From Sphagnum compactum (lineage: Eukaryota), in assembly GCA_965153455.1 (NCBI GenBank), contig OZ234493.1, positions 16,482,213-16,546,212 of the forward strand: a DNA stretch of 64,000 nucleotides, in the 5' to 3' direction. A program made the translations under genes and the position numbers. The notes under the pieces were generated by a model. It had not been told where the DNA came from and did no database searches. It was given only the letters and a program-made list of their open reading frames with translations. Positions 21,761 to 49,000 of this stretch are shown piece by piece (positions within the stretch are counted from its first letter, which is position 1; each line of letters begins with the position of its first letter).

Positions 21761-24170
21761 ATGGCAAGTGCAGGGTGTTATGCAACTTCTTCATGCATCG
21801 AGCGTGTTTGAAAGGAGAAGATTGCATGTTCTCTCATAGCTGGAGTGACCAGGCTAGCCAGGTAAGTAAAGCGCATCGTCTCTCCTCTAACAAGCTTCGT
21901 GCATCAAAGTGTTTCCTTTCTGGAAAAAGATTATGCTCACAGCTTTCAGTTTGCGCATGACTTTGTTTTTCCCCTCAATTAGAACATTGTTTTTTCAGTG
22001 GTCCTGTCATGTGTGTGTACTGATTGTTGTACGATCATGTGCAGGTATGCACATTTTATCAGCGTGGCCTTTGTTCTTATGGCAGTCGTTGCAGGTATGA
22101 GCATGTAAAACTGTCCCGTCCAGTGTCAAATAATCCTCTCCCTCCCCTACCAAGACCTTCAGTGGTAGCTCTTAACTCATCTCCAGACACAAGTAGGGCA
22201 GAAGAGAGCTCAAGCAATACCCCTACACAAAGTGCCTGGCAACTCACAGAAGGCAAGGCTAATCTGGGTCCCCGATTTCTGGAAGAAGATGATGAAAAGG
22301 ATGTTGAAGAGATTGAAATGCCAACGTCCAACGACCCCAGTGAGACCCCAATCTGCGCGTTTGCAGCTGCTGGCATATGCCCTCGGGGTGATAACTGCCC
22401 GCAGATTCATGGTGACTTCTCCCCAACTTGTGGGAAGCATTGTTTGCATCCCTTTCGTCCATGAGAATGTGATAACCACAGGCAGCAGTGTGAACGTAAC
22501 CAGAAGAAGCTTGAGGCACTTCGCAAGAGCCAAGATATTGAAGGCAGTGTCTGTCTGGAACGGGTGCTTTCAAAAACAACAGTTGCTGAGCGGAAATTTG
22601 GATTAATGTCAGGTCATCCATTTTGTGTTGGCTGTATACGGGGTTGGCGGAGTGGTTCTCATGCACCAGGGATGGACATTGATACTGTTGTGCGGGCCTG
22701 CCCAGTTTGTCGAGTAACTTCACATTTTATAGTCCCAAGTGTTGTTTGGTACTCAAGTTCTGAAGAAAAGGAGGATATAATCAACGGCTATAAGAACAAG
22801 CTCAGGTGTGTGCATGAGACCTAAAGCTGTTTGTTCTATTTGATGTGCCTCTCACAACTGGAGGTTTTATTACCCATCTGACATACTACTTGACAGATGG
22901 TGACCTGATACATAATTGTCCTTTAAGGTTATACTCACCCTATTATGGACCTGTCTAATGACCAGCCAGCTGGTTGGATTTTGACTTGCAAGATTGGCGC
23001 TGCCATTCTGGTAGGCTTGTCATGTGGCTGCACCCAGCTGTGACCATCAGTCTTTTATCTGGTCGGGTGCCTGATTTGTCAATATTTGTGTATATAGATT
23101 GTGCTCTGATTTGTCATAGGTGGGTGGTGTGTTGCACATTAAATGACTGGTGTACGACCTCCTTTTCCATCCCTTCAACAATTCAAGCAATCAAGGAGAT
23201 CAAGTGGACATGGAGGCATAAGGGGTGACCCCAAAGTCCTTATTGGTCTCTAGGTGTTTGCATTCTTATGTGAGAACATATAGAATGCTTTACCTTAGCT
23301 CCTGATCCACAGACGTGTAAAAATACACGCACAATGTTTTTTGTAATTGAATGTTAGCGGTGTATTTGTGTGTGCGGTGATGTTGATTGTAAGTATTTTG
23401 ACTATGGAAATGGAACATGTCCCTTTGGAACTAGCTGCTTCTACAAGGTAAGGAAACCAGCTTTTTTTGTTCTCTGTCCTCTGTGCAACTCAAATTGTCA
23501 TGTCAGAGTGTAGCTGACCCCCATGTGACCATGTTGTCTTAACACATTTGACAATTCCGGTTGGCATCAGATGCTCCTGCTCAGGATTTTGCATATTTAG
23601 CTGGTTTCATATGTTGAATTTCCTTCATCTGCAGCATATGTTTAGCGATGGAAGTAGGGAGGAGGTGAAGTTACGGCACCTTGGTGCTGCTGATGGGAAC
23701 ACTGTCATTGCCAAAAATGTTCGGTAAGCTTTTCAGGCTCCCCTTGCTGAAAGGTTTTCTCCTTTGTTTTTGACCGATCCTTAGGAGCTTTGTGGTTTTC
23801 ATGAAATTATTAACATCTTTGGTCAGGATGTAAGATGACCAAAGATGTTCAAGATGCATACATCATTTTAAGCTCAAGACTACCCTGCCGTGATTTTTTG
23901 TGGCTTCCTGACTGCAATTGTCCATGTCCTTTGATATCAGACCTTAAATGTGTTGCTGGCTGGTCAAGGGAGAAATTATTCTGGCAGATAAAGGGTTTGA
24001 GTGTTGCAACTTCTGAAAGCTTCTGCCCTCTCTAATGTTGGAGAAGGATTTCATTCTATTCTGCATTTTGAACGTTATGTGCCACTTGTTGTAATGGTTT
24101 GCAGTTTTTGAATCCAATGTTGTTTTGATTTTCTCTTGATATGGACAGGTTATCGGACTTCCTGGACTGA
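21761..24170 (+). pseudogene. MKRN: Makorin (CCCH zinc fingers + RING E3 ligase) pseudogene, copy 1
   Basis: Exons read [42 protein letters not shown]...[21 protein letters not shown]...RING...[45 protein letters not shown]...; RLSDFL. Defects: in-frame TGA at 22462-64, first RING Cys to Gly (EGSVC), loss of CD before HPFC, and a mutated acceptor (gcgg) near 23377. Confidence 0.9.
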
Positions 24171-24695: not shown

Positions 24696-27462
24696 GATTA
24701 TGCTCACAGCTTTCAGTTTGCGCATGACTTTGTTTTTCCCCTCAATTAGAACATTGTTTTTTCAGTGGTCCTGTCATGTGTGTGTAGTGATTGTTGTATG
24801 ATCATGTGCAGGTATGCACATTTTATCAGCGTGGCCTTTGTTCTTATGGCAGTCGTTGCAGGTATGAGCATGTAAAACTGTCCCGTCCAGTGTCAAATAA
24901 TCCTCTCCCTCCCCTACCAAGACCTTCAGTGGTAACTCTTACCTCATCTCCAGACACAAGTAGGGCAGAAGAGAGCTCAAGCAATACCCCTACACAAAGT
25001 GCCTGGCAACTCACAGAAGGCAAGGCTAATTTGGGTCCCCGATTTCTGGAAGAAGATGATGAAAAGGATGTTGAAGAGATTGAAATGCCAACGTCCAACG
25101 ACCCCAGTGAGACCCCAATCTGCGCGTTTGCAGCTGCTGGCATATGCCCTCGGGGTGATAACTGCCCGCAGATTCATGGTGACTTCTCCCCAACTTGTGG
25201 GAAGCATTGTTTGCATCCCTTTCGTCCATGAGAATGTGATAACCACAGGCAGCAGTGTGAACGTAACCAGAAGAAGCTTGAGGCACTTCGCAAGAGCCAA
25301 GATATTGAAGGCAGTGTCTGTCTGGAACGGGTGCTTTCAAAAACAACAGTTGCTGAGCGGAAATTTGGATTAATGTCAGGTCATCCATTTTGTGTTGGCT
25401 GTATACGGGGTTGGCGGAGTGGTTCTCATGCACCAGGGATGGACATTGATACTGTTGTGCGGGCCTGCCCAGTTTGTCGAGTAACTTCACATTTTATAGT
25501 CCCAAGTGTTGTTTGGTACTCAAGTTCTGAAGTAAAGGAGGATATAATCAACGGCTATAAGAACAAGCTCAGGTGTGTGCATGAGACCTAAAGCTGTTTG
25601 TTCTATTTGATGTCCCTCTCACAACTTGAGGTTTTATTACCCATCTGACATACTACTTGACAGATGGTGACCTGATACATAATTGTCCTTTAAGATTATA
25701 CTCACCCTATTATGGACCTGTCTAATGACCAGCCAGCTGGTTGGATTTTGACTTGCAAGATTGGCGCAGCCATTCTGGTAGGCTTGTCTTGTGGCTGCAC
25801 CCAGCTGTGACCATCAGTCTTTTATCTGGTCGGGTGCCTGATTTGTCAATATTTGTGTATATAGATTGTGCTCTGATTTGTCATAGGTGGGTGGTGTGTT
25901 GCACATTAAATGACTGGAATACGACCTCCTTTTCCATCCCTTCAACAATTCAAGCAATCAAGGAGATCAAGTGGACATGGAGGCATAAGGGGTGACCCCA
26001 AAGTCCTTATTGGTCTCTAGGTGTTTGCATTCTTATGTGAGAACATATAGAATGCTTTACCTTAGCTCCTGATCCACAGACGTGTAAAAATACACGCACA
26101 ATGTTTTTGTAATTGAATGTTAGCGGTGTATTTGTGTGTGCGGTGATGTTGATTGTAAGTATTTTGACTATGGAAATGGAACATGTCCCTTTGGAACTAG
26201 CTGCTTCTACAAGGTAAGGAAACCAGCTTTTTTTGTTCTCTGTCCTCTGTGCAACTCAAATTGTCATGTCAGAGTGTAGCTGACCCCCATGTGACCATGT
26301 TGTCTTAACACATTTGACAATTCCGGTTGGCATCAGATGCTCCTGCTCAGGATTTTGCATATTTAGCCGGTTTCATATGTTGACTTTCCTTCATCTGCAG
26401 CATATGTTTAGAGATGGAAGTAGGGAGGAGGTGAAGTTACGGCACCTTGGTGCTGCTGATGGGAACACTGTCATTGCCAAAAATGCTCGGTAAGCTTTTC
26501 AGGCTCCCCTTGCTGAAAGGTTTTCTCCTTTGTTTTTGACCGATCCTTAGGAGCTTTGTGGTTTTCATGAAATTATTAACATCTTTGGTCAGGATGTAAG
26601 ATGACCAAAGATGTTCAAGATGCATACATCATTTTAAGCTCAAGACTACCCTGCCGTGATTTTTTGTGGCTTCCTGACTGCAATTGTCCATGTCCTTTGA
26701 TATCAGACCTTAAATGTGTTGCTGGCAGGTCAAGGGAGAAATTATTCTGGCAGATAAAGGGTTTGAGTGTTGCAACTTCTGAAAGCTTCTGTCCTCTCTA
26801 ATGCTGGAGAAGGATTTCATTCTATTCTGCATTTTGAACGTTATGTGCCACTTGTTGTAATGGTTTGCAGTTTTTGAATCCAATGTTGTTTTGATATTCT
26901 CTTGATATGGACAGGTTATCGGACTTCCTGGACAGATTGGTTAATGCCAGGGGAACTGGATGGATGAGAATGCAAGCGGGAACCAACATGGAGACTTAGC
27001 TTGCCAAAAATACTAATATGACAGGAAGGACCAAGTATTTAAGGGCCCTTGACACAAAGGACTGCACACAACATGTGCATTCATAATCTGTAAGCTTTTA
27101 CTTTGCCCCAGCAATTCTACCTGCACTCAAACGGGTTGCCTGACTGATCTATGGGGTAGTAAAGATTCATACCCTGTTGTCCAGATATCATGATCTGTGC
27201 AGAGATGGTAGTTGTGTTATCAAGTAAGTTCCAGGGTTGTCTGACTGATCAATGGGGTAATTGGATTGTTATATATACTTCCCTACACCCACTATTGGGA
27301 GCTGATGAAGTGAGTAGGGTGTTGTGGCAGCTAGTCATTGCTATTCATAGTGAAATTGATTGTCTGATACTTTGCAAGTGACACTTGTCATGTTATGACC
27401 ATACTGAATTTCATCATCTGAGTTTTGCTTGTACTAGAATTGACCCAATGGTTAGGCCTTCA
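24696..27462 (+). pseudogene. MKRN: 2767-bp tandem duplicate of the makorin pseudogene lacking the first zinc-finger exon
   Basis: Near-identical to 21929-24695 at offset 2767 (ORFs 22024/24791, 22564/25331). It carries the same stop codon and RING lesions. Confidence 0.92.
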
Positions 27463-30400: not shown

Positions 30401-30736
30401 GATCAATTGCATCAATAATTTTGAATAAATGATATTTCAAATTCCATGCGCCAAAACATGAACTATTGTAGCATTGAAATGGAAGTACTTTAAATCCTAT
30501 AAAAATTCTAAAAGATTTATGAAAAGTAAGTGTGATAAGCAAATGATTAAGAAGGCCAAATCCTAGTAATAACAATTGTGTTGAATGACAACATATATTA
30601 TAAAGAATTGTGAAACTTTGAGTTTATGGACCTATTGGAATACCTTTCCACATTTACAAAAACGATAAATTAATTAAATGGACAAATGTTACATTAAATA
30701 TACATGTTGAATTTAATCATATAATGAATATACAAA

Positions 30737-33700
30737 TCACATCCTTTTGGAAGTGGAGTCGAATCTTTTCCATAGTGCGTTGAAAGGTTCTTGGATTAAT
30801 GTGGCAATATATTGCAATCCTTTCTTTTTGTTCAATCCTTCCAAACGTTGCAAAACTTCTTGCATTTCTGGTCTTTGATTTGGGTCTTCCTATAAGAAAC
30901 AAGCGTCATAAAAGTTAGATGTTTATTATGTAATTGTTATACATTACAATCAAACCATGGCAAAATGCTCCAATAAATAGGACCATATGTTCATGTCTCA
31001 ATTTTCATAACATAATTTGAACATATATTCTTCAAAAAGGAGTGTAGAAACCAACTTATATTTGTATTCAACAACATAATTTTATGTTATTTGAAACTAG
31101 GATACTCAAATTGACTTTACATATCAATCATGCAAATGGTTTAAGGAATTCCAAATGAAATTGAATGTACCATTTGCATGTGCAAACCTTCTTAAGAAGT
31201 TTTACATTCATTAATCAATCCAATTTAACTTATTTCACTAGTAAAAGCGTGGTTTATGACTAAATTTTAGTCACAAACAACATTTGCCACTAAAAGTTAG
31301 CCTAGTAGCAAATGACAAATTAGGAACGACGCTAGTTGCAAACAACAGATGAAATATTTGTTTTCATAGAATACACATATGACAATTTTACACATGTATC
31401 CAAGGATGAGCTCTTGCGACTACACTTACAACTACAATGTACAGCAATATGTTGAATGTTGAAGTTGTTTACATTGTAGTTGTAATATGTGCCATGTGGT
31501 GGCTTAAGATTGAAGGACGTGACAACTTAAAATTTATAATCATTTAAGGTTAATTTAAGGTTGGACCACTTATGATAGGCCAATTGGCACTTGAGCTAAG
31601 CCTAGGTTAGGCCACCTAACCTAATTAAGTGCCTAATGTACGTAACCTAATTTCAAGGTAAACCATTTAAAATAGGCCATGTGGCACCTAGGCTATGCCT
31701 AGGCCACCTAGCCATTGTCTAGCTTAGGTAGGTAGGTACTTAGGTCTAGGTCTAAATTGTTACAACAAAATCCAATTTTATTTTTAATTTAACCTATTAT
31801 GTGGAGCGTATGTGATTAGCTCCTCCCATATGGCAACTAAAAAAATTTAATGTGTTTACACCAAATCAACCTATTTATATAGTTTGTAAATTTGAAATGG
31901 AAGACAAACAATATGGGATAAAATTTTATCTATAGCTCTTAGTCGCATAGTTCTAACCTAGTTGCAACTATTCCTTAAGATATACTATTACATAGCCTAC
32001 CTACTAGGTAGCATAAGTTTTTACTAGGTAATCATTTAGATAATATTTATTTGAAGTCAAAATTCAAATAGTTTAAAAATAATTATTTATTTAAAATACC
32101 TATTTAGATAGCCTCTAAATAAATATTTATAATTCAATAGGCCTATTAAGTAGCTAGTGGATACGTAGGTATATATGTAGATACCTAATAAATAGCTAGG
32201 TAGCTAGGTAGATAAATGGTATATAGGTAGGTGTACAAAGTAGGTAGGTAGGGTATATGCACCTAGTAAATAAATAGGTAGGTAGTAGGTAGGTATTTAG
32301 TAATTATGTAGGTAGGGATGTAAGTGGTATGTACATAAATACATAACAGGTAGGTATATGGTACATATGTGGGTACCTAGTAATTAAGTAGGTAGGTAGG
32401 TAATTAAGTAGGTAAACATTTAGTAGGTAGGTATAAACATATAGATAAATATGTATTATTAAATAATCTATATGTGTAGTTACTAGGTAACATATGTACC
32501 TTATGTACTTATAATGTAACTATTTTGGTTGCATGTGCAACTGAATGTATATATGATGTTGTAAAAATAAAAAGACATCATGAAAAATCAACCTATTGAA
32601 AAGATGAAATAGGTCATAATTACAACCTAGTTGAAAAGAAGACCAAAATCCATCCAAATTTGAAAATTAGTTTCAGAGGCAACCATTCATAGTCATAAGC
32701 GACATTTAGTCGCACATAGTCACACAAGGAATGGTTGCAAATGACAAGATTTCTATTAGTGTTTCATATTGTTTCAAATATTACATTGAATCCATGATTT
32801 TAGGTTTTTGAAATTTGCTTGACCACAAATTGAATGATAAAATAAAAGATTTGGCACAAGATTTACCTTGATGCATTGAAGGGAAATTTGCAAAAATGAT
32901 TTGGCTTCATTTCGATCAAACCCAACAATTGAATTATTAATTGCAACATCAAAAATTTGTTGAAATCCATCTTCTTCCTCTTGAACCTCTTGTACCCATT
33001 GGATAAAGTGGCGAATGTGAATTTCATTTCCATCTAAAGTCAATGGTGACCCATTCACAAGTCGAATCAACAATACTCCAAAGCTATACACATCACTTTT
33101 TGTCAATGCTTGATTTGAATGAATTTCTGGTGCCATATATCCGCTTGTTCCTGGCCTAGAAGTTGAAGCTAATGCAATCTGAATTTAAAAATTCAAAAAT
33201 ATCAATAATTTCAATGTGCGTTGCATGCATTGAATATACATGTCAAAATTCATAAAACCCATACCCAATATGGTATAATACCAATAGGAAACTTGATTTT
33301 TTTTTAATCACAAAAGTCGCAATCCTTTTGTTATTACTTGTGCACACATAAAAATAAATTTTGTAATATAAAATTTGTAATTTCATGAATTATTACATTA
33401 AGTGTTTTTCAAATATTCATTTTACATTGTGATTGTTTATCATATTATTCCATGACCTATAATAATGAAAATATAAAATTATTAAATTGTGGCACACAAG
33501 AGTGTTCAAATTTGCAAAGTTCATAATTGCACTAAGATATAATGCCCATGCATTTAATCAACAAAAAAATAATGGTGGGGCACATACCACATTTTCATCC
33601 CTGCCATGTAAAATTTTTGCCAACCCAAAATCAGCCAATTTTGGGGTGTAATCCTTATCCAAAAGGATATTTCCTGGTTTGATGTCAAGATGAACAATGG

Positions 33701-36700
33701 TTGGATCACATTTATGATGCAAATGTGCCAATCCTCGAGCGACCCCTATAATGATGCATATTCGTTTGTCCCAATCCAAACGTTTATCTCCATCGAGCCA
33801 TTTGTCAAGAGATGAATTTGAAATGTATTCATACACCAACATGTGTTTTAAACCTTTGATACAATAGCCCAAAAGACGAACCAAATTCATATGTCGAATT
33901 GATCCCAAGGTGTTCATTTCTGATACGAAAGATTTTTTTGCACCTTCATTATGTTCACCACTCCATTCCAAAACTTTAATCGCAATTGTAATGCCTTTCC
34001 AACAACTTTGATACACCTCACCATAGGCTCCTCTCCCCAAACTTGGTCCGAAATTCAATTCATCGTATGTAAAAGATCGAATACTCGAATTTAATGGCAA
34101 CGATTCTATTATCGGTTGGTATTCATCGAACATCCATTTCAACCATTTTCGATCTTGTTCATCATTTGGTGTGAGATTATGAAGTTTATCGATCGCTTCC
34201 AATGCTGCTTGATATTTGTTTAAACTCCAACTCATGTGGGCATGAACTGTTAAAGTGAATGCATCATTTGGTTCAAGAACATCAGCCTTGTCAAGATCCT
34301 CGAAGGTTCCTTGATAGTCACCCAGGTTCCTTTTGATAGCTCCACGAACACTCAAAGTGAATGCATTGTTTGGTTCAAGAACATCAGCTTCATCAAGATC
34401 CTCCAAGGCTCCTTGATAGTCATGCAACATCCTTTTGACATCTCCACGAACACTCAAAATGAATGCATTGATTGGTTCAAGAACATGACCCTTGTCAAAG
34501 TCCTCCAAGGCTCCTTGATAGTCATCCAACATCCTTTTGACATCTCCACGACGTCGCAAAGTGAATGCATTGTTTGGTTCAAGAACATCAGCCTTGTCAA
34601 GGTCCTCCAAGGCTCCTTGATAGTCATCCAATATCCTTTTGACATTTCCACGACGTCGCAAAGTGAATGCATTGTTTGGTTCAAGAACATCAGCCTTGTC
34701 AAGGTCCTCCAAGGCTCCTTGATAGTCATTCAACATCCTTTTGACCTCTCCACGACTCCTCAAAATGAATGCATCATTTGGTTCAAGAACATCAGCCTTG
34801 TTAAGGTCCTCCACGGCTCCTTGATAGTCATGCAACATCCTTTTGACCTCTCCACGAACACTCAAAGTGAATGCATTGTTTGGTTCAAGAACATGAGCCT
34901 TGTCAAGGTCGTCCAAGGCTCCTTGATAGTCATGCAACATCCTTTTGACCTCTCCACGAACACTCAAAGTGAATGCATTGTTTGGTTTAAGAACATGACC
35001 CTTGTCAAGGTCCTCCAAGGCTCCTTGATAGTCATCCAACATCTTTTTGACCTCTCCACGAACACTAAAAGTGAATGCATTGTTTGGTTCAAGAACATCA
35101 GCCTTGTCAAGGTCCTCCAAGGCTCCTTGATAGTCATGCAACATCCTTTTGACCTCTCCACGAACACTCAAAGTGAATGCATTGTTTGGTTCAAGAACAT
35201 GAGCCTTGTCAAGGTCCTCCAAGGCTCCTTGATAGTCATCCAACTTCTTTTTGATCTCTCCACGACTCCTCAAAGTGAATGCATCGTTTGGTTCAAGAAC
35301 ATGAGCCTTGTCAACGTCCTCCAAGGCTCCTTGATAGTCATGGAACATCCTTTTGACCTCTCCACGAATTCGCAAAGTGAATGCATCGTTTGGTTCAAGA
35401 ACATGAGCCTTGTCAAGGTCCTCCAAGGCTCCTTGATAGTCATCCAATATCCTTTTAACATCTCCACGATTCCTCAAAGTGAATGCATTGTTTGGTTCAA
35501 GAACATCAGCCTTGTCAAGGTCCTCCAAGGCTCCTTGATAGTCATCCAACATTCTTTTGACATCTCCACGATGTCGCAAAGTGAATGCATTGTTTGGTTC
35601 AAGAACATGAGCCTTGTCAAGGTCGTCCAAGGCTCCTTGATAGTCATGCAACATCCTTTTGACCTCTCCACGAACACTCAAAGTGAATGCATTGTTTGGT
35701 TCAAGAACATGACCCTTGTCAAGGTCCTCCAAGGCTCCTTGATAGTCATCCAACATCTTTTTGACCTCTCCACGAACACTCAAAGTGAATGCATTGTTTG
35801 GTTCAAGAACATCAGCCTTGTCAAGGTCCTCCAAGGCTCCTTGATAGTCATGCAACATCCTTTTGACCTCTCCACGAACACTCAAAGTGAATGCATTGTT
35901 TGGTTCAAGAACATGAGCCTTGTCAAGGTCCTCCAAGGCTCCTTGATAGTCATCCAACTTCTTTTTGATCTCTCCACGACTCCTCAAAGTGAATGCATCG
36001 TTTGGTTCAAGAACATGAGCCTTGTCAACGTCCTCCAAGGCTCCTTGATAGTCATGGAACATCCTTTTGACCTCTCCACGAATTCGCAAAGTGAATGCAT
36101 CGTTTGGTTCAAGAACATGAGCCTTGTCAAGGTCCTCCAAGGCTCCTTGATAGTCATCCAATATCCTTTTGACATCTCCACGATTCCTCAAAGTGAATGC
36201 ATTGTTTGGTTCAAGAACATCAGCCTTGTCAAGGTCCTCCAAGGCTCCTTGATAGTCATCCAGGATCCTTTTGATAGCTCCATGACTCCTCAAAGTGAAT
36301 GCATCGTTTGGTTCAAGAACATCAGTTTCATGAAGATCCTCCAAGGCTCCTTGATAGTCATCCAACTTCTTTTTGATCTCTCCACGACTCCTCAAAGTGA
36401 ATGCATCGTTTGGTTCAAGAACATGAGCCTTGTCAAGGTCCTCCAAGGCTCCTTGATAGTCATGGAACATCCTTTTGACCTCTCCACGAATTCGCAAAGT
36501 GAATGCATTGTTTGGTTCAAGAACGTCAGCCTTGTCAAGGTCCTCCAAGGCTCCTTGATAGTCATCCAATATCCTTTTGACATCTCCACGATTCCTCAAA
36601 GTGAATGCATTGTTTGGTTCAAGAACATCAGCCTTGTCAAGGTCCTCCAAGGCTCCTTGATAGTCATGCAACATCCTTTTGACATCTCCACGAGTCCTCA

Positions 36701-37388
36701 AAGTGAATGTATTGTTTGGTTCAAGAACATCAGCCTTGTTAAGGTCCTCCAAGGCTCCTTGATAATCATGCAACATCCTTTTGACCTCTCCACGAACACT
36801 CAAAGTGAATGCACTATTTGGTTCAAGAACATCAGCTCCGTCAAGATCCTCCAAGGCTCCTTGATAGTCATGCAAGATTATTTTGAAAGTTCCACGAACA
36901 CTCAAAGTGAATGCATCATTTGGTGCAAGAACATCAGCCTTGTGAAGAGCCTCTAAGGCTCCTTGATAGTCATCCAACATCGTTTTGACCTCTCCACGAA
37001 TAGTCAAAGTGACTACATTGTTTGGTTCAAGAACATCAACTTTGTCAAGGTCCTCCAAGGCTCTTTGAAAGTCATGCAACATCTTTTTGACATTTCCACA
37101 AATCTTCAAAGTGATTACATTGCTTGGCGCAAGAACATCACCCTTGTGAAGGTCCTTCAATGCTCCTTGATACTCATCTAACATCTTTTTAACCTTTGCA
37201 CGAATTCGCAAAATGAATGCATTGTTTGGTTGAAGAATATCAACCTCGTCAATGTTCTCCAAAGCTCCTTGATAGTCATTTGACATCCCTTTTACATTTT
37301 CATGAGTCTTCAAAGGGATTGCATTGTTTTGTTCAAGAACATCAACCTTGTCGAACTCCTCCAAAGCTCCTTGATAATCATCCAACAT
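30737..37388 (-). CDS. TPR-array / non-RD RLK-Pelle protein kinase fusion, ~1421 aa; exons 37388-33588, 33178-32867, 30889-30737
   Basis: About 31 34-aa TPRs (G8, Y17, A20, L24, A27, P32), then RSFTYDEL, GRGAYG, IAIK, EMNTL, HLDIKPGN and DFG. Two canonical phase-0 GT-AG introns join ENV|IALASTSRPGTSGYMAPE...DVYSFG...CIK|EDPNQRPEMQEVLQRLEG...KRM*. The true start codon is uncertain. Confidence 0.88.
31236..32761. mobile_element. Non-autonomous CACTA element in intron 2 of the TPR-kinase
   Basis: Begins CACTAgtaaaa at 31236 and ends tttctatTAGTG at 32761, with a 3-bp TTT duplication on both sides. It has sub-terminal agtcgca/gttgcaa repeats and an internal (AGGT)n-rich tract. Confidence 0.8.
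34161..37388 (-). repeat. 102-bp coding tandem array (~31.5 TPR units)
   Basis: Consensus AFTLxxRGxVKRMLxDYQGALEDLDKAxVLEPNN repeated with no indels. Confidence 0.97.
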
Positions 37389-37800
37389 TCTTTTGACCTT
37401 TGCACGAGTTCACAAAGAGAGTGCATCGTTTGGTTCAAGAACATGAACCTTGTCAAGGTCCTTGAAAGCTCTTTCATAATTGTTTAACACATGTTTGACA
37501 TATTAATAAAAATCCCTAAAATATGTGCAATGCTTGGTTTAATAACATCATGTTTGTCAAAGTCTTCAAAAGTTTTTTCATCTTCCTTAAAGACCTTTTT
37601 TTTCATGTGCACAAGTTCTTAAACTTAATGCACTTTTGGTTCATTGAACATAAACCTTGTCAAGGTTTTTCAAGGCTACTTGATAATCTTTCAATACCTT
37701 TTTTTCACATTTTTCACATGTGTTATTTAAATGATTCCATTGTTTAATTCATGAACACTAGCCTTGTGAAGGTCGTCCATGGTTTTTTCATAAGCATTTC
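37389..37800 (-). pseudogene. About 4 decayed TPR units upstream of the ORF
   Basis: VKHVLNNYERAFKDLDKVHVLEPNDALSL*TRAKVKR lies in frame immediately upstream. Further units (gattatcaagtagccttgaaaaaccttgacaagg, gacgaccttcacaaggct) contain stops and frameshifts in poly-A runs. Confidence 0.8.
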
Positions 37801-39020: not shown

Positions 39021-41322
39021 ACCGTGTACCATAATTTAGGCTGGTTAAAGGTTTCTGTGCTACCCGCTCAGAACTTTACTCGGGAATATATTATTGCAGC
39101 TGGATGCTTTTCTGTCTTTTCTCTTGTCGTCTTGTGCTTTCACATTGCTCAAGATTGGAAGTCTTTAATAAAGCGATGCAGTCTGTGCGTGAGTACTAGA
39201 CCTGCAACTTCCTGTGATCACTGATTTTTCTGGCTATAAGATAATGGATGCAAGTGGTCATTGATGGATTGCATCGTGTGTCAGCAAAGAAAAGTGAGGC
39301 CCGTTAGCAATCCTCAGTCGGAACTTTCCTCTTGTATAGAGTATATCAACTCATTGCTTTGTGTAGCTTTTTCTCCCCCTCATTACCTGCCGGGAAACAT
39401 TGTTCATAATTTCATTTACCATAAAGTCATGGCACGTGCCCCATGTTGGTGCTTGGCCCCAAACTTGAGCATGTGTAGGTTTTAGACTTGAAAATTTTCC
39501 TGTGACCGGTGCTTTTCAGGCATTACAGAATTGATGGATTTGGTCATTGTTTGATAATGCACAACCTGAGTCAGCAGATATAATTGGGGTTGTTAGAGCT
39601 GGACCTAGTGAAATTGTCATGGCTGAAATTCGCCATTTTGCTATAAATGAAAGTCCCAAGCAACATGGTCGAGGGAACTTTTTGAAAAAATCCTAAAAAA
39701 ATTGTCACATTTTGAGGAAGAAGAGAGTTATGAAATAGCCAAAACAAAAAAAATTGAAGGATGTGGGCAGATTTCTAACTTTCTTCTTTTGAAATCCCCA
39801 TATTTAGTTAATAGGTTCTATTGGTTTGCCAACATGTAATAAGATTGCCATAATTTTTACTTCTTTATTTGTCTTGTAATCAGATCTGACTAAATCCTCT
39901 CGTGGCTGATTGCCTGTTTTGATGCGACATGACAAAATTGAAAAAAAGGACCACCGGCTGGACCCTCTGAATTGATCGTTTGTCAGCAAAGAAGACTTAT
40001 CGGCTCTTTGAAGTGCTCCCCAAGCAAAGTGGCCCATTTGAGAACTTGCCTTTGGAATGCATACAATATACTAAGGCAACAGAAATGGTTTGCTGACATG
40101 TGAGCTGTTGAATCTTCATCACATGCTCACTGGTCATGCCTGTAATGGAGTTGGGCATACGTTAGAGAAATCGGTAAATTCAGGGGGAGTTTCACAGGGT
40201 GTGTCATACCCTATTAACTTTTTCGCCTTGAGTTCAGTGCTCCATAAAGTCACCCTGACTGTGGTCGGTTTTGTAAAAAGACGGGCTGGGAAGGGGTTGC
40301 CCACGTGGATGCGCATTTAACTGGCTTAAAATGGGGTGGACAGTTCAAGACTGGCTTGAATAGCTGGACAGTCTAAGAAGTTGAAAATATCAACTTTTGG
40401 ATTGGGGAGGGGAGGCGAGGGTGTTGGGGGAGGCATTTTTGGGATTTGCAGGGTGGGTGAGGGGATTTGGGTGCGGTTTTTTCTTTCCTGAAGGATGGGT
40501 GGGTTAGGGGTTTAGGAGGGTCATGATTTTATTTTTATTTTAAGTTTTTTTTTTGGAGGTGGGGAGGGGGTGGGGTTCTAGGGGTCTTAATAGGTGGAGG
40601 TGGGAAAGGGTGTTTTTTTTCCAGAGTGGGTGGGTTCGAGCCTTTAAATATTTATTTTTCGTTGTTGGAGGTGTAGGGGGATACTTGGATTTATCCCAAA
40701 TTTTGCATTTTTTAAATAATTGGTTGTGGGTTCATGTTCTAGGGTTTAGAGTTAAGGGGGTTGGGGGAGGTTTTCATTTGATGCCCCTGTGCTAAGTGCA
40801 TTGGAGATCATTGGAAATTTGAGAAGAAAGAAAGCAGGATCATTTCTGAAAGTAGCACCATTTGCATTCAGAAACAGAGGTCAAGAGTGTGGTATTCAGA
40901 TTGGTTGATTTCTAGCATCCACCCACACCAAAAGAACTTCTTTTTGAGCATCAATGTTCCTCATAATCATGTTGCAACTTAATGTCTTTGCTCTCAATAC
41001 TTGACATCCATTGTTGATTTTCTGGTTCGTGATTTAGGGCTTTCATGTTGTTAAGCTCCTAAGTCTCAAATTTGAGATGCACACCATCAAAGTCTTCCTT
41101 TGCAAAGGTCCCTTTTGCAATGTCTTGGTCACACACCATTGCTATTAACTTGCTTTAGAGCTCATTCAGCTCATAATTCTTTATACCTGAAGACTTTTGC
41201 CTACCTAACATGTCTTCTGTCGACCCTACCATTTTTGTGTTAATTATGCTGCTCATGGTGTTTAATTCTTTAGTCAATTGTACATCTTCAATGTTTGCAT
41301 TTGTGATAGCGTTTTTCTTCAT
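39021..41322 (-). repeat. Segmental duplicate module B (inverted copy at 61714-64000), including a decayed coiled-coil-like coding fragment
   Basis: ORFs 39015..39224(+) and 63796..63996(-) are near-identical. The MKK.AITNANIE.VQLTKELN...*...IAMVCDQDIAKG fragment with a shared stop occurs in both copies. The left boundary is set by the window end of the partner copy. Confidence 0.93.
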
Positions 41323-41840: not shown

Positions 41841-43499
41841 TTGCAAAAAGGCATTTAATGCATCACATTCCAGCACTAGACATCCAGCTACGCATTAAGA
41901 CTTAGGTGGCCAAAAGTATGAAGTCATGAGAATTGGTGACATTCTCACCATAGCACAATGGATCTACCCACACTCAAAGACAAAGCCATGGGGTAAAGAA
42001 AAGAAAGCTTCAGACCAGATACCGTCGCCCAAACATGGCCTGCAAGAAAGTGTATCATGATGAGGACGGCACTGGGTGGAGCTGATGGTAGACAGTGACA
42101 AGTGGTACAGGATGCTTTGCATCTTCCATGTTGATATGGACATATACTGCTAGCTTGCCAAGTTTCTGATCCCATTCACCATCCCTCTCAACCAGTGCAA
42201 ATGGCACCTAGATGACAGCAAAATAATACATTCTAGCGATCGGTTCACAATCTACTGAATCTTGCAGGTTGAGCAGTTCGCTGAAGATGAACATCTGCAA
42301 TGAAAACATAAGCAATTGGAGTAGTACGAAGCAAGAAGAAAATCAGTCACACATAAATAACATTTACCAATGGATGTCATGATATTGATGGTTTCTCCAA
42401 CTGGTTATGTTTCTGGGAGTTTTGATGCAAAAGAAGGCAAAGATCAAAAGCCAGAGTGAATGAAGCAAGAAGAATGGAAAAACCTGTAAGATTAGGGTTT
42501 CCAATTGGGTCAGACAAAACAAACAATGAATGGGAAGCAAAATGTGAAAGTACCTTGCGCCTTAAAACCGTGACTTGCTCCTTATGAGAACCCCATCCCA
42601 AAATTGCCCTCCATTTGTAACTCCACCCAAAGATGCCTCTCCATTCATTGCATAGACACTGAAACCTACATCCACTTGCAGCAACACGCCAGTAAAACAT
42701 CAGGCTCACAGGGTGAAAGAAGAAGAGGGATCAACCATAGTGAACTTCTCTGCAGCACATTATGCAGAGCATACCACTCAGATACCTTGTATGAACACAG
42801 AAAAGATACTATGACAGATTGGTATCAACATCTCCACATCTCAGAATTCTGTGAAAAATTTCCCCTCGCTCCCATAGAAAGACATCTGGTTCATAAAAAA
42901 TTAGAGATGTGATAGAGAAGAACAGGTGCTTACTGTCTGCGTCCTCTCCAAGTATACCGCATTCCCATTGACATTTTGTGCTGTGAGTGCACCTGTGTCA
43001 TGGTTCTTGTCTTTGGATTCCACAAAGGCTTTGCTTTGCATCTTTCCCCTCACTATCACCAATGCATCTTACTTCATTGATACTTCTTGTGGCCATAAAC
43101 TCCACCACATCCTGAAAGGAAACTGTTTTGCTTCGTGAGTATCATTCATTTGTTGGACAGAGTTTACCTCCTAGAGACAACTTCCAATACCATTTTGGTT
43201 TTTCTTGCATTCTCCATACTCGAGAACCCTGCTGAACAATTCAAGATGGTCTTTGGAAAAAAGGAGAGAGCAATCAACTCTATCAGATTATTCAACTTCA
43301 TCACAAATAGAAGTGTCTAGCATGCTAAGAACCGGTTCATGAGGCAGTAAAATGTGGGAAAGGAATAGACATCTGCAAAGTCCATTTGCTGCTTCAAGTT
43401 ATTCAGGATAGGTAGGCAGACAGTTGAGCAAGATGTCAGAAAGTGCAATTGTACAGATGGGAAAATGGAGCCAGTATTTTAGGCACATGAGGACATTAC

Positions 43500-44732
43500 C
43501 TTCTGCTCAATCTTAAGGGTCTGGCCTGACTTCAAACAACCCTTCATTGCATTCTTTATGTCTTCCAACTCTTGTTTTGTAAGTCCCTAAAATAGGCAAA
43601 ATACATGCATCAAAGGCCTGTTGAGTTGAAAAAAAACTAAAATGAGAGACTTACCCTTACCCTTAAACTATCTCCTATTTTCACATCACAACAAGCATAT
43701 GCTTATGTGCTGTCCTTGAACCCTAATTGGCTGTATTAAGACCAGAGTGCCTGACTGGTTTCTTTGCAAAATGATAACCAAGACAGGGTCAAGTGTAGGA
43801 CTAGTATTCTTACAAGAGCTGCACTTACCACAACTAAAACTTTTCCTCGATGAGCCAACAGAAGTTGTATATGTAGAAATGATCTGTGGCAGCCGTGAGA
43901 GCTTTCCATTCTCTGCCAATACAACTGTAGAATGCAAATCTCAAGAGTATGAAACTCTTTCCTTGTACACAAAAAACACAGCCAAGTATGTTAGCGCTTG
44001 CACTTAACAAAAAGAAATGGTTTGTGCAATAAAGGTACAATCCCATACCTAGGAAGTTCTTCATGACATCATTGAACTTGATGTTCTTGAAAATTCTACA
44101 ATTGCTTTCACCCTGACTGTTTTCGAAACAGATGGGTCCTTGTGAAAATCATCAAACACAAGATTGGTCTCTGCAGCACCACAATGCAGCTCTGCCTCAA
44201 CAAGCTCCAAAGCATTTTTCCGTACTGTTGTTATGTACAGGGCTAAGGCATACTTTCCTGCAACTCCATAATTGGGCAAAGGTACCTAAAATTCCAACAA
44301 GAAAAAAAATGAAACCCAATAATAATAATAATAATAATAAATCCAAATTCAATCTAGTATGATGCTCTAGCACTTCACGACTATATTTCCCAAAAAACCA
44401 AATGGGTGTCTGAAAAGAAAAGAAAAGAAAAAACCTCGACATGTTCATCTATGGATCATTTCGCTCCGTATCCACGAACTGCCTGCACAAGAAAATCCTA
44501 ACAAGTTCTCAGCTCTCTTTTATTCCTCCAGAAGTTCCATTACCATACTATAGTCCAAGAAGGAGAAGACACATAAGAATTTTACCTTACAAGCAGCGGA
44601 AGAGACCACAGCGACGGCGCCCATTTCATTGGCATTAGTAAAGATAGAAGGAGACGCAAAGGCCAATGACGATGCCGATACCGATGCAATAACACCCAGA
44701 AAACCTCTCAATGCTCGACTTGATCGCAACAT
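43500..44732 (-). pseudogene. ATP synthase subunit O (OSCP) pseudogene, exons 1-4
   Basis: Exon 1 has a transit-peptide-like MLRSSRALRGFLG... (ATG at 44732). Exon 2 VPLPNYGVAGKYALALY... has a 1-bp deletion near 44095. Exon 3 VLAENGKLSRLPQII...QLLLAHRGKVLVVV has a frameshift. Exon 4 ends ...LKIEQK. No C-terminal exon was recognised. Confidence 0.88.
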
Positions 44733-47289: not shown

Positions 47290-49000
47290 AAACACAATTG
47301 TTTAGGTTAAACTTAACCAAACTTGGCAAAACTTGACAAAATTAATATCATAATACATTGGCCATTTGAACACTTGTTCCTTGAATAATTAATTAATTTT
47401 GAAATTTTCATTTCACAAACAGAATATTTTTAAATATTCATTATTTCTTTCACAATATTTTTTTGATTTAAAAGAATTTTTTTTTTGAAACTTTCAACAT
47501 TTTTGAAAATAATATAATTAATGTTGAATTAACTAAAGTACTAGGGTATTAGTTAGAATAAACTAGACAATCAATTTAACTAAACTTGGCAAAATTAGGT
47601 TAAATTAGAACATTAAAATAAAACTTGGCAAAACCTAATCACATTTAACAAAACTTTGATAAATTAGGCTAAACTAGGCTATTGAAGCAAAACTTGGCAA
47701 AGATTGAATAGACATAGTTGTTTAAGATAAACTTGGCTAAATTTGGCAAAACTTGACAAAATTTGGCTCAACATGCCTATTTAAATTGAACTTGGTAAAA
47801 TTGGGCAAAACTTAACAAAACTTGGTTAAACATGGTTATTTTGGTTAAACTTGGTTAAACTTAGCAAAACTTAACAAAACTTGGCTAAACATGAAACCCT
47901 ATTTTGATTAAACTTGGTTAGAATTTGGCTAAATTTGGCAAAACTTGGTTAAACATGGCTATTTAGGTTAAACTTGGTTAGATTTGGCAAAATTTAGCTA
48001 AACTTAGTTAAACATGGTTATTTTCATTAAATTTGATTAAAATTTGGCTAAACTTGACAAAATTTGGTTAAACATGGCTATTTAAGTTAAACTTGGTTAG
48101 ATTTGACAAAACTTGGTAAAAATTAGATAAATTAAGCTAAGTTAGAACATTGATGTTAAACTTGGCAAAAATTGATTAAACATGACCATTTAGACTAAAT
48201 TTGGCAAAATTTGGCAAAATTGGCGAAACATGGTTATTTAAATGAAACTTGGTTAGACTTGGCAAAAATTAGTTACTTAAGTTAAACATGGCTTCATTTG
48301 GCAAAACTTAAATAAATTCGACTAAAATAGGGTATTGAAAATAAACTTGGCAAAATTTAGATAAATTAGGTTAAACTAAGGTAGTAAGGCAAAACTTGGC
48401 AAAAATTAGCTATACATGGCTAAACATGGTTATTTAGGTTAAATGGCTAAACCTGGCAAAATTTGGATAAATTAGGCTAAATTATGATATTGAGGCAAAA
48501 CTTGGCAAAATTTGGTTAAACATGATTACTTAAGTTAAATTTAACTAAACTTGGCAAAACTTGGATAAATTAGGATAAACTAGGGTATTGTGGCTAAAAG
48601 TGGTTACTTATGTTAAACTTGGCAAAACTTAAATAAATTGGGCTAAATTAGGGTATTGAAGTTAAACTTGGTAAAAAAATGGCTAGAACCAAAATTAACC
48701 CAAATTTAACCAAGTTTAGCCTAAGTGGTTTAATTAAGCCATGTCTAGCCATGTTTTGCCAAGTCTATTCATGTTTAACATAAGTAGCCATGTTTAACCA
48801 AATTTAATCAAGTTTAACGTCATACCTTATTTTAGCCTAACTTATCCAAGTTTTGCCAAGTTTAGCTAGGTTTAATTTTAAAATAATCGTGTTTAGCCAA
48901 ATATAGTTTCAATATTCTAATTTAACCTACTTTTCCAAGTTTTATTGAGTCTAACCAATTGAAAATTAAGGAACCATGTTTAGCTAAGTTTAACCAAAAT
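47290..49000. repeat. Low-complexity ~10-bp (aaacttggca/aaacttggtt) array that reverses orientation at ~48690
   Basis: Dozens of aaacttggc/aaacatggtt units up to ~48680, then their complements (gccaagttt, agccatgttt) to ~49000. The flanks have gactac/tagtc motifs like those of the intronic CACTA. Confidence 0.8.

Follow-up and report, generated by a model that had tools for sequence, protein, structure and literature searches.

Intracellular immunity in plants is mostly framed in terms of NLRs, and resistance proteins built as kinase fusions are known mainly from cereals. Sphagnum represents an early-diverging moss lineage, which dominates peatlands and carries a dense microbiome. Soluble kinases of the RLK/Pelle group that hold TPRs in the same chain are familiar from land plants as BSKs (RLCK-XII); in these, the kinase is N-terminal to a short TPR domain, for which Pfam has the model TPR_BSK1_C. 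Lr9, Sr43, Pm4 and the WTK family of cereals are described as kinase fusion or tandem kinase resistance proteins (PMC10260399, PMC10260397, PMC12830362). Repeats that are conserved internally but vary at concave positions are presented as a hallmark of fungal NLR sensors and as rare in plants (0.4%) (PMC4986451), and mosses are reported to carry TIR-NBS-LRR proteins with C-terminal TPRs as well as kinase-NLRs (PMC3991678, PMC7145615, 10.1101/2022.10.19.512840).

Investigating a 64-kb stretch of the Sphagnum compactum genome (in the following, the window, at its full length), we characterised a minus-strand gene in which a long TPR array stands directly N-terminal to a kinase, with the motif RSFTYDEL between them, just as the initial annotation had described it. 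An ORF scan of the window returned a stop-free frame of 1283 codons (33558..37409, minus strand). The predicted gene consists of three exons (37388-33588, 33178-32867 and 30889-30737), which join in phase 0 across two introns, both with GT..AG ends, and give 1421 amino acids plus stop, in agreement with the gene model first proposed (Table 1). The encoded protein has 161 kDa and is predicted to be soluble. A second copy of the gene is absent within the 64-kb window, where no gene cluster was seen. That the gene and its architecture are real we consider practically certain.

Table 1 Features of the predicted gene and its flanks, in the direction of transcription (positions within the window)
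Feature	Position	Strand	Evidence or remark
Four decayed TPR units	37389..37782	-	5' of predicted ATG
Predicted start codon (37388-37386), then TPR units of 34 aa, 31 of them in frame, residues 1-1054	34227..37388	-	
Degenerate 32nd TPR and conserved linker ending RSFTYDEL, residues 1055-1104	34077..34226	-	
Kinase, exon 1 portion, residues 1105-1267: Gly-loop, catalytic Lys, HLD loop, DFG; exon end 33588	33588..34076	-	
Intron 1, 409 nt, GT..AG	33179..33587	-	RNA reads
Exon 2, 104 aa: activation segment, APE, kinase subdomains IX-X	32867..33178	-	Pfam, RNA reads
Intron 2, 1977 nt, GT..AG	30890..32866	-	RNA reads
Exon 3, 50 aa and TGA stop at 30737-30739: DPNQRP motif, C-terminal tail	30737..30889	-	RNA reads
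Probable 3' UTR	30610..30736	-	RNA depth runs to ~30610, where 5 molecules end

Mapping RNA reads to the junctions 33588/33178 and 32867/30889 had been suggested as a check of this model, and both junctions were recovered in reads from a related plant. The reads, mapped over 30600-34350 (kinase exons, introns and the 3' edge of the array), come from another genome with fixed differences; only 145 of the 826 are at least 99% alike, and part of them may derive from paralogues. In the stranded polyA RNA-seq run X24, exon depth was ~14-84 compared to 0-9 in the introns, and first mates lay nearly all on the plus strand, which places the RNA on the minus strand. The joint of intron 1 was crossed by 34 raw X24 reads (first mate plus in 33, minus in 1; 16 starts) and occurred in a single contig from each of X1, X2 and X4; the joint of intron 2, which skips 1977 nt, was found in 31 raw X24 reads (20 starts) and one X1 contig. 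We conclude that the gene is intact and that its transcripts are spliced at the predicted junctions.

Tandem Repeats Finder placed the array at 34252-37462 (31.5 copies of period 102 with 88% matches and 0% indels; score 4686), of which 31 units are in frame, followed by a degenerate one. The predicted protein matches the Pfam families TPR_2 (E 1.2e-81) and TPR_1 (E 6.4e-78); its 34-residue units fit these profiles, and the period of 102 nt is kept without indels. The earlier description of about 31 homogenised TPRs therefore holds for the count, and for the homogenisation only in units 7-30: mean unit identity across the array is 87% in DNA and 73% in protein, and only these interior units reach 92-100% identity to their nearest neighbour. 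The DNA of units 13-17 matches that of units 20-24 at 99-100% identity, reflecting the duplication of a 7-unit block. For comparison, Dyrka et al. 2014 speak of highly internally conserved repeats where these share more than 85% identity across 100 aa or more; protein identity here is 73% over the 31 units and 81% over units 7-30, by a different measure from theirs. The array edges are collinear with the related locus L012, and interior units are 93-100% alike among themselves compared to 89-96% to any unit of locus L004 and 91-97% to any unit of L012. Strong concerted evolution was considered and rejected, as mean identity within the array (0.873) hardly differs from that between the window and L004 (0.864); it is the nearest-neighbour pattern of the interior units, and this only, which shows array-specific expansion.

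Upstream of the predicted ATG, the nearest decayed unit is identical to the array consensus at 80 of 102 positions and carries a TGA at 37410-37412, while the remaining ones contain indels and stops; these units are probably 5' UTR or dead sequence. Within the array, the 31 units differ from their consensus 251 times, yet contain neither a stop nor an indel; given 93 distinct variants and a share of 4.2% stops among substitutions, the probability of finding no stop is ~0.018, which suggests that the reading frame of the array has been maintained. The array (residues 1-1054) has a net charge of -75 and a pI of 4.8, and IFIT-type nucleic-acid sensing was set aside owing to this strong acidity.

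Pfam Pkinase covers residues 1115-1263 in exon 1 (E 2.5e-29) and resumes in exon 2 (profile 155-241, E 2.9e-9), PK_Tyr_Ser-Thr likewise matching in both exons. With GRGAYG at 1118, IAIK at 1135, HLDIKPGN at 1233, DFG at 1253, APE at 1283 and DPNQRP at 1373 (the alphaC Glu was assigned by eye), the catalytic motifs of a eukaryotic protein kinase are complete, and no Arg precedes the catalytic Asp at 1233. Judged by its motifs, Pfam matches and phylogenetic position, the kinase is catalytically complete, non-RD and a member of the RLK/Pelle (IRAK) group, as originally assigned. The non-RD trait had also been taken as a mark of pattern-recognition receptors, a reading that the comparison with relatives does not support: 98 of 101 HxD motifs in matches P0021-P0120 are HCD or HLD, so the trait is common to the nearest relatives in general and was inherited. 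Among 117 family proteins scanned, 107 yielded the motif (105 HLD, 2 HFD) and 10 gave no motif match.

The hydropathy profile bears out the claimed lack of a signal peptide and membrane helix: the highest 19-residue Kyte-Doolittle mean, 1.31, lies within the kinase, and the N-terminus is hydrophilic. In the strict sense the protein is therefore not a receptor-like kinase, and it is by definition a receptor-like cytoplasmic kinase. Neither NB-ARC nor NACHT is among the 17 Pfam families matched by the protein, which sets it apart from NLR/STAND proteins; TIR is likewise absent from these matches, and NB-ARC (PF00931) occurs in none of the 120 matches listed for this TPR type, leaving no direct tie to NLRs. 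An ESM Atlas search with residues 900-1267 returned generic kinase clusters only, all <0.9.

The initial annotation had envisaged a receptor kinase whose ectodomain was replaced by the repeats. In a quick IQ-TREE phylogeny, thinly sampled and without bootstrap (33 rows, the window and 32 of 411 proteins chosen by label), the Sphagnum proteins form a clade (SH-aLRT 99) whose sister group comprises all sampled RLK/Pelle kinases; it joins these 22 RLK/Pelle rows (SH-aLRT 91), apart from TKL-type rows. Since the clade is nested neither among G-lectin/SD-2b nor among LRR or other receptor kinases on this tree, descent from a true receptor kinase is unsupported, and the kinase would rather form a separate RLK/Pelle lineage. 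The highest kinase identities outside Sphagnum among the listed matches (44-49%) are to G-type lectin kinases (S-domain, SD-2b/ZmPK1-like), which share the non-RD loop (HCD or HLD). Despite these top pairwise identities, an SD-2b/G-lectin origin was rejected on the tree; B-lectin, S-locus and PAN domains are absent among the Pfam matches, and the Sphagnum protein, unlike these kinases, lacks both a membrane helix and an ectodomain of lectin, EGF or PAN type.

The linker and kinase are common to at least 120 protein clusters, the 120 listed being 53-93% identical. All matches with an organism name are from Sphagnum, namely 20 among those listed (7 species, including four S. fallax loci on different chromosomes) and, in addition, P0004, P0006, P0196 and P0288. 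The public annotation calls family members 'hypothetical protein', and its models span 311 to 722 aa, which illustrates how repeat arrays defeat gene annotation. The proposal of an uncharacterised family thus stands in that we found no TPR-RLK/Pelle kinase of Sphagnum or other bryophytes described in the literature, and has to be amended in that the gene is no lone oddity but one of a large Sphagnum family; it should also be noted that the supplementary tables of kinome and RLK surveys, such as metaRLK 2.0 (PMC13174206) or a survey of PRRs (10.1101/2023.07.04.547604), might list such proteins. In 40 related metagenome loci, the number of in-frame TPR units varies from 0 to ~38 (the maximum, in L017); at least 15 of them are joined to the kinase in 11 loci, a stop or frameshift interrupts kinase exon 1 in 10, and neither a second kinase nor a cluster was seen in any. 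Kinase dN/dS against 38 loci is 0.32-0.79, and 0.32-0.48 against the closest ones. By these comparisons the kinase is under purifying selection, and the array appears to grow, shrink and decay fast through duplication and loss of whole units. The family itself appears large, young and, among named matches so far, confined to Sphagnum, a set of statements in which we have high confidence; its members would be soluble kinases of fast turnover, which apart from the kinase domain contain a single module, a long array of repeats whose binding face varies.

The variability of the units follows their canonical positions. Within the window array the most variable positions are 6, 9, 5, 12, 15 and 13. 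A set of 187 units taken from 122 proteins of the family gives 9, 5, 6, 12, 15 and 13, and 290 DNA units give 6, 12, 9 and 5. The structural TPR positions are invariant in the window array and the unit framework is strongly conserved across the family. In HOP, ligand contacts on the concave face are reported at TPR positions 2, 5, 6, 9, 12 and 13 (PMC1261162). Using this pre-defined set on the 290 units, pN was 0.364 compared to 0.112 elsewhere, a value reached by 3 of 5000 random six-column sets, and nearly all amino-acid variation seems to lie on the concave helix-A face, at known ligand-lining positions. The corresponding test for positive selection was not significant (omega 0.95 vs 0.53 elsewhere, matched by 1391 of 5000 random sets), and positive selection from a window-only test with columns chosen post hoc (omega 1.13 vs 0.86) was not accepted. 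With pN/pS within the window array at ~1 overall, the data appear to fit relaxed constraint as well as diversifying selection.

For P0006, a relative from S. fallax, AlphaFold2 predicts a helix-pair solenoid, followed by a 27-residue helix and the kinase (pLDDT 84.8, pTM 0.75). In the modelled TPR part, helices of 13-14 residues each alternate, and the linker region is predicted as one long helix running into the kinase N-lobe; the closest solved folds (BAK1, IRAK4, BRI1) agree with the RLK/Pelle assignment. Taken together, the protein may be understood as consisting of 31 TPRs that form an acidic superhelix, a linker that is conserved and helical, and a kinase of the non-RD RLK/Pelle type. 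The superhelix would serve as binding module, its specificity residing on the concave helix-A face; that the array is a specificity-bearing binding surface we consider rather probable. A bound ligand might control the kinase by way of the rigid linker, in that it relieves autoinhibition or, if multivalent, gathers several kinases into a cluster, whereupon the kinase would phosphorylate downstream substrates; we infer these binding and control steps from the sequence. The variable ligands would most likely be biotic, that is, proteins of pathogens or of the microbiome. As an overall explanation, we give a cytosolic repeat-sensor kinase of a fast-evolving family an even chance. An immune or other biotic sensing role is plausible, though we would put it somewhat below that; the argument for immunity is circumstantial, consisting of repeat numbers that differ, of the variability of the concave face, and of the birth and death of genes.

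In comparison to BSKs, the domain order is reversed, with ~32 TPRs preceding the kinase; the Pfam search of this protein gave no match to TPR_BSK1_C, and the sampled RLCKs lie apart from the Sphagnum clade in the quick phylogeny, so that the protein falls outside BSK/RLCK-XII. With the cereal kinase fusion proteins it shares an intracellular kinase joined to a non-kinase domain, and theirs are described as immune receptors without NB-ARC; none of those named in the sources cited above is presented there with a TPR array, and they are grass-derived and genetically defined, in contrast to a case built on sequence. The fungal TPR, ANK and WD NLRs resemble it in their near-identical long arrays, polymorphic repeat number and variable concave residues, but are described with NACHT or NB-ARC, an effector domain at the N-terminus and TPRs mostly of 42 aa (PMC4986451), whereas here 34-aa repeats and a kinase output are found, and positive selection did not reach significance. 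A TPR module in moss immune-type proteins is also known from the TNP family (TIR-NBARC-TPR) and from the C-terminal TPRs of P. patens TNL1 and TNL2 (10.1101/2022.10.19.512840, PMC3991678), a likeness in the presence of TPRs to a protein that itself has neither NB-ARC nor TIR.

Other explanations have to be weighed against a sensor. The protein could be a scaffold or regulatory kinase of ordinary signalling, whose TPRs serve as docking site for a conserved partner, for instance a chaperone or signalling complex (compare BSK and PP5-type TPR enzymes) and whose repeat number matters little. TPRs commonly are docking or autoinhibitory modules, as exemplified by PAPP5 (PMC8551457), and the conserved unit framework, expression in an ordinary polyA library and a position outside any cluster, in the window as in the 40 loci, would suit such a role. 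A single conserved partner does not, however, lead one to expect variation focused on ligand-contact positions, and confinement to Sphagnum among named matches, the many paralogues with a quarter of the sampled loci broken and 0 to 38 units, and the missing BSK-type TPR match speak against it as well; we regard this explanation as unlikely. Sphagnum lives with a rich microbiome, and the same machinery could serve another purpose, sensing non-pathogen partners (cyanobacteria, methanotrophs) or self, the latter in allorecognition between gametophytes. The sequence evidence for this is the same as for immune sensing, from which the present data do not separate it, and fungal repeat sensors of such style are described as acting in non-self or incompatibility recognition (PMC4986451); its probability we rate as low.

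Equally low we rate the probability that a recently expanded array on a young kinase gene is drifting towards a pseudogene, expressed and with little or no function. The pN/pS near 1 among window units, the decayed units upstream of the predicted ATG and the broken related loci (10 of 40) would be in line with such drift. The same applies to the closest relatives, L003 and L027 (dS 0.07), which have only ~4 units each and a kinase with a stop, to the transcript-like paralogue contig L025 with a premature stop at the exon 1/2 junction, and to the annotated S. fallax relative P0418, which is short (470 aa) and contains 2 TPR-core motifs. Yet the frame of 1421 codons is intact over 3.2 kb of repeats without an indel, all catalytic motifs are present, the structural TPR positions are invariant, the gene is expressed and correctly spliced, kinase dN/dS against the closest loci stays at 0.32-0.48, and there are eleven independent arrays that are long and intact.

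Returning to the repeat-sensor kinase, such a family would be an independent solution to the recognition of diverse ligands, a natural system in which to study how repeat shuffling makes specificity, and a handle on the interactions of Sphagnum with microbes. A more far-reaching version, which we put forward tentatively and consider rather doubtful, holds that intracellular immune receptors lacking NB-ARC have evolved in Sphagnum as a class of their own, in which TPR units are shuffled, duplicated and lost to create new concave surfaces and are connected by a rigid helix to a non-RD RLK/Pelle kinase, and that in other mosses TKL kinases acquired the TPR cassette independently, one of them with an MLKL-like N-terminus. 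If true, the 'TPR array plus kinase' would be the moss counterpart of fungal repeat-NLRs and of cereal kinase-fusion resistance proteins.

The TKL kinases in question are known from Ceratodon purpureus (M758_1G286800, P0298) and from metagenomes (P0295, P0305, P0310, P0318, P0325). They likewise combine long arrays of the same 34-aa TPR type with a kinase (44-56% identity over 340 aa in P0298, P0295 and P0310), but their kinases are RD and TKL-like, only 26-30% identical to that of the window, and form a clade of their own (SH-aLRT 100). The N-terminus of P0298 has a sub-threshold Pfam match to MLKL_N (E 8.8e-4, 19.2 bits vs a cut-off of 27); against PDB sequences it gave three weak matches (E 0.033-1.5), MLKL not among them, the N-terminus of P0295 gave no match, and BLAST between the two N-termini found none, so that an MLKL-like N-terminus in moss relatives is to be treated as a lead only. 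One TPR type thus seems to have been fused to unrelated kinases, RLK/Pelle in Sphagnum and TKL in other mosses, which even if the family had no sensor role would still be a clear domain capture, one cassette on two unrelated kinase groups. In P0298, there is a kinase on each side of the array.

Reading of the minus strand gave a gene model of three exons (see table), in which a frame of 1283 codons without stop is followed by two short exons. Every junction is in phase 0. Of the predicted 1421-aa product, residues 1-1054 consist of 31 TPR units in a 34-residue register, followed by a degenerate unit 32, a linker, the juxta-kinase motif RSFTYDEL and the kinase. Pfam recognised TPR_2 (E 1.2e-81), TPR_1 (E 6.4e-78) and Pkinase (residues 1115-1263, running on into exon 2), no other domain type being credible in this search, and the kinase motifs are complete (Gly-loop, IAIK, HLDIKPGN, DFG, APE, DPNQRP). 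Frame, repeats, Pfam matches and motifs bear out the initial annotation of a TPR array joined to an intact RLK-type kinase. The hydropathy maximum over 19 residues is only 1.31 and lies within the kinase; this hydropathy scan thus gives no sign of a signal peptide or membrane helix. The array is strongly acidic (pI 4.8, net charge -75). We rate the protein as a receptor-like cytoplasmic kinase, or a kinase-fusion protein, whose N-terminal TPR array is without precedent.

Features of the gene and its surroundings (window positions)
Feature	Position	Strand	Remarks
Exon 1	37388-33588	minus	first ATG, predicted start, at 37388; donor GTATGT directly after
Exon 2	33178-32867	minus	CAG acceptor before, GTAAAT after
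Exon 3	30889-30737	minus	TAG acceptor before, TGA at end
Stop-free frame	33558-37409	minus	1283 codons
Tandem array	34252-37462		period 102 nt, 31.5 copies, 88% matches, no indels, score 4686 (Tandem Repeats Finder)
Last degenerate TPR/linker	34125-34160		3 residues shorter than in relatives
Antisense open frame	34254-36956	plus	900 aa, across the TPR array
Two near-identical ORF copies	22024-22824, 24791-25591	plus	2767 nt apart, Cys/His-rich stretches
74-aa ORF	44061-44285	minus	by eye like N-terminal part of mitochondrial ATP synthase subunit O/OSCP
Inverted, closely similar ORF-bearing pair	1589-1936, 42377-42730	plus, minus
Inverted, closely similar ORF-bearing pair	39804-40070, 63035-63409	minus, plus
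AT-rich satellite-like tandem repeats	47569-48640		periods 10, 49, 59, 98, 119, 182 nt

RNA and DNA runs containing parts of 30600-34250 were identified and four of them mapped onto 30600-34350, which is the kinase end; this region excludes the 5' end and most of the repeats, and the start codon is a predicted one. In X24, a stranded polyA run from a related plant (raw reads, about 12% of the run sampled), depth was about 14-84 in exon bins versus 0-9 in intron bins, and RNA coverage runs without a gap between the kinase and the last TPRs, both of them in one exon. First mates lay almost all on the plus strand, which in usual stranded libraries denotes RNA from the minus strand. The predicted splice junctions, 33588/33178 and 32867/30889, were confirmed by 34 spanning reads (16 starts) for intron 1 and 31 (20 starts) for intron 2 of 1977 nt, both reading CT..AC on the plus strand, i.e. 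GT..AG in gene orientation; the first joint was also found in contigs of the runs X1, X2 and X4, the second also in X1. The RNA reads carry fixed differences from the window (145/826 are at least 99% alike), the mapped reads stem from a related plant and in part perhaps from paralogues. The long antisense frame stems from the lack of a stop codon in that frame of the repeat unit; as antisense reads are almost absent from the mapped part of the stranded RNA, we consider it a repeat artefact.

The closest named proteins to the kinase, which was searched separately among proteins of 696-2218 aa and among shorter ones, all come from Sphagnum. P0006 (S. fallax BDL97_05G115300, 722 aa) combines 11 TPRs with the same linker and kinase at 70% identity, and the partial P0004 (S. 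balticum) combines LRRs and one TPR with them at 77%; the next matches are angiosperm G-lectin receptor kinases (44-49% identity). In P0004 about 400 aa of LRRs, including matches to NLR-type LRR Pfam families, precede the TPR, which would reflect either another exchange of domains in this family or a fused gene model. Among shorter proteins there are at least 120 matches to the kinase part, those listed being 53-93% identical; the 20 listed with an organism name are all Sphagnum (tenellum, fallax, magellanicum, jensenii, compactum, balticum, troendelagicum) and the others are metagenome proteins without one. Searched exhaustively with HMMER, 1.84 billion representatives contained nothing closer outside Sphagnum; the matches above 60% identity are short fragments from clusters of Sphagnum or without organism name. 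S. fallax carries family loci on chromosomes 05, 07, 11 and 18. Family members are already public as hypothetical proteins; annotated ones have 0-11 TPR-core motifs and several models begin in an alternative frame of the repeat, and array annotation should therefore be regarded as poor.

The kinase was initially regarded as that of a receptor whose ectodomain had given way to a TPR sensor. A quick tree was made from 33 kinase domains, namely that of the window and 32 chosen by label from 411 proteins, with SH-aLRT as its only measure of support. In it the five Sphagnum rows group together (99) at the end of a long stem. Their clade is the sister group of the full set of 22 sampled RLK/Pelle rows (91), and TKL-type rows stand apart; this tree did not nest the clade within the G-lectin kinases, and ectodomain loss is therefore not shown. 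The non-RD loop is indeed present (HLD 105, HFD 2 within the family), but this state is common to the nearest relatives (HCD 86, HLD 12 versus HRD 2 in matches P0021-P0120). The AlphaFold2 model of P0006 (pLDDT 84.8, pTM 0.75, 73-row alignment) predicts regular helix pairs, a 27-residue helix over the conserved linker and the kinase; the best matching solved structures are BAK1, IRAK4 and BRI1.

Scanning metagenome contigs yielded 41 related loci, 40 with a kinase exon, these counts not being independent, as several loci are the same sequence in different assemblies. Eleven join at least 15 in-frame TPR units to the kinase: L001 (29), L004 (33), L012 (24), L013 (20), L014 (25), L017 (38), L020 (19), L023 (20), L039 (19), and L002 and L026, which reach the contig end with at least 15 each. 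Near relatives of the window kinase also occur with short arrays (4 units in L003 and L027, 9 in L006 and L007). Compared with 38 loci, the window kinase shows a dN/dS of 0.32-0.79 at dS 0.05-0.47, by which measure the family is young and its kinase under moderate purifying selection. L025:1-1693, a transcript-like contig without introns, comes from a paralogue (78% identity) and joins about 5 TPRs to all three kinase exons. A TAG stop lies at its exon 1/2 junction, two codons into exon 2; the contig represents either a pseudogene transcript or an isoform yielding a truncated kinase.

The units of the window array share on average 87% identity in DNA and 73% in protein; in the interior (units 7-30) each matches its nearest neighbour at 92-100%, and units 13-17 recur as units 20-24 at 99-100%, a block duplication of 714 nt. 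The edges are collinear with L012 (97, 95, 91 and 89% for units 1-4), and the interior units are closer to one another than to any unit of L004 or L012, so the interior expanded after the genes diverged. Calling the repeats 'homogenised', as was done initially, suits this interior but is too strong for the whole, since mean unit identity is 0.873 within and 0.864 between arrays. At 34125-34160 the window protein is 3 residues shorter than L004, L017, L003 and the S. fallax relative, which shifts the repeat register between loci.

Variation is unevenly placed. In the Pfam register (residue 467 = profile position 3), the most variable canonical TPR positions of the window array are 6, 9, 5, 12, 15 and 13; the identical set emerges from 187 units of 122 family proteins, and pN is highest at positions 6, 12, 9 and 5 (290 distinct DNA units). 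In HOP TPR domains, the ligand contacts lie on the concave face at positions 2, 5, 6, 9, 12 and 13, as reported by Magliery and Regan (PMC1261162). On this pre-defined set pN is 0.364 versus 0.112 elsewhere, a value reached by 3/5000 random six-column sets, while omega is 0.95 versus 0.53 elsewhere, reached by 1391/5000. Variation is strongly focused on the predicted binding face, positive selection not being demonstrated.

The same TPR type extends beyond Sphagnum: units 6-15 retrieved arrays 44-56% identical in other moss-type proteins. P0298 (Ceratodon purpureus M758_1G286800) has an N-terminal region, a non-RD kinase (HYD), a long TPR array (about 25 units by eye) and a second, RD kinase; P0295 an N-terminal helical region, a kinase and TPRs; P0305, P0310, P0318 and P0325 TPRs followed by a kinase. 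Kinases of these moss TPR-kinase proteins are RD, 26-30% identical to the window kinase and form a separate clade, so one TPR cassette was joined to two unrelated kinase groups. Residues 28-109 of P0298 gave one sub-threshold match to MLKL_N (E 8.8e-4, 19.2 bits versus a cut-off of 27), the four-helix-bundle family of the MLKL N-terminus; Pfam found no such match in P0295 and a PDB sequence search nothing meaningful, and this MLKL-like N-terminus is only a lead. NB-ARC occurs in 0 of the 120 matches listed to this TPR type. TPRs with a protein kinase were also seen among the TPR matches in P0317 and P0341 (Glomeromycota, arbuscular-mycorrhizal fungi) and in P0348, P0382, P0395 and P0400 (Planctomycetes); given 23-30% kinase identity in the three compared (P0317, P0341, P0348), convergence is likely.

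As to function, which is predicted, the concave face of the TPR superhelix would bind variable, probably basic, protein ligands, and binding would be relayed via a rigid linker to an active non-RD kinase, controlled through relief of autoinhibition or through clustering. The immune role proposed initially, or other biotic sensing, is plausible, though we hold it with less than even confidence. The pattern resembles that of the repeat domains of fungal NLRs, which have internally conserved repeats and variable concave sites, a type of repeat rare in plants (0.4%; PMC4986451); it also resembles cereal kinase-fusion resistance proteins and moss immune-type proteins using TPRs and kinases as modules (PMC3991678, PMC7145615 and 10.1101/2022.10.19.512840). 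A housekeeping scaffold seems unlikely. Near-neutral evolutionary froth, which we hold to be rather improbable, has to be read next to both decay and preservation: kinase exon 1 is broken in 10/40 loci, by a stop (L003, L013, L019, L027) or a frameshift (L029, L033, L034, L035, L037, L038), and upstream of the ATG lie four decayed TPR units, the nearest identical to the array consensus at 80/102 positions and carrying a TGA, the remaining ones carrying indels; although the 31 units deviate from the array consensus 251 times, they hold zero stops and zero indels (P of no stop about 0.018 given 93 distinct variants). Our literature search met no description of an N-terminal TPR array with an RLK/Pelle kinase; supplementary kinome tables, outside its coverage, may list such proteins. 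The interest of the gene lies chiefly in the family dynamics and the focused variation.

Among the neighbouring features, the two near-identical ORFs on the plus strand form a tandem gene duplication; by eye they look makorin-like, with what we take to be CCCH zinc fingers and a RING finger. The 74-aa ORF probably represents a single exon of an adjacent housekeeping gene, and both inverted pairs look like dispersed transposable-element copies flanking the gene region.
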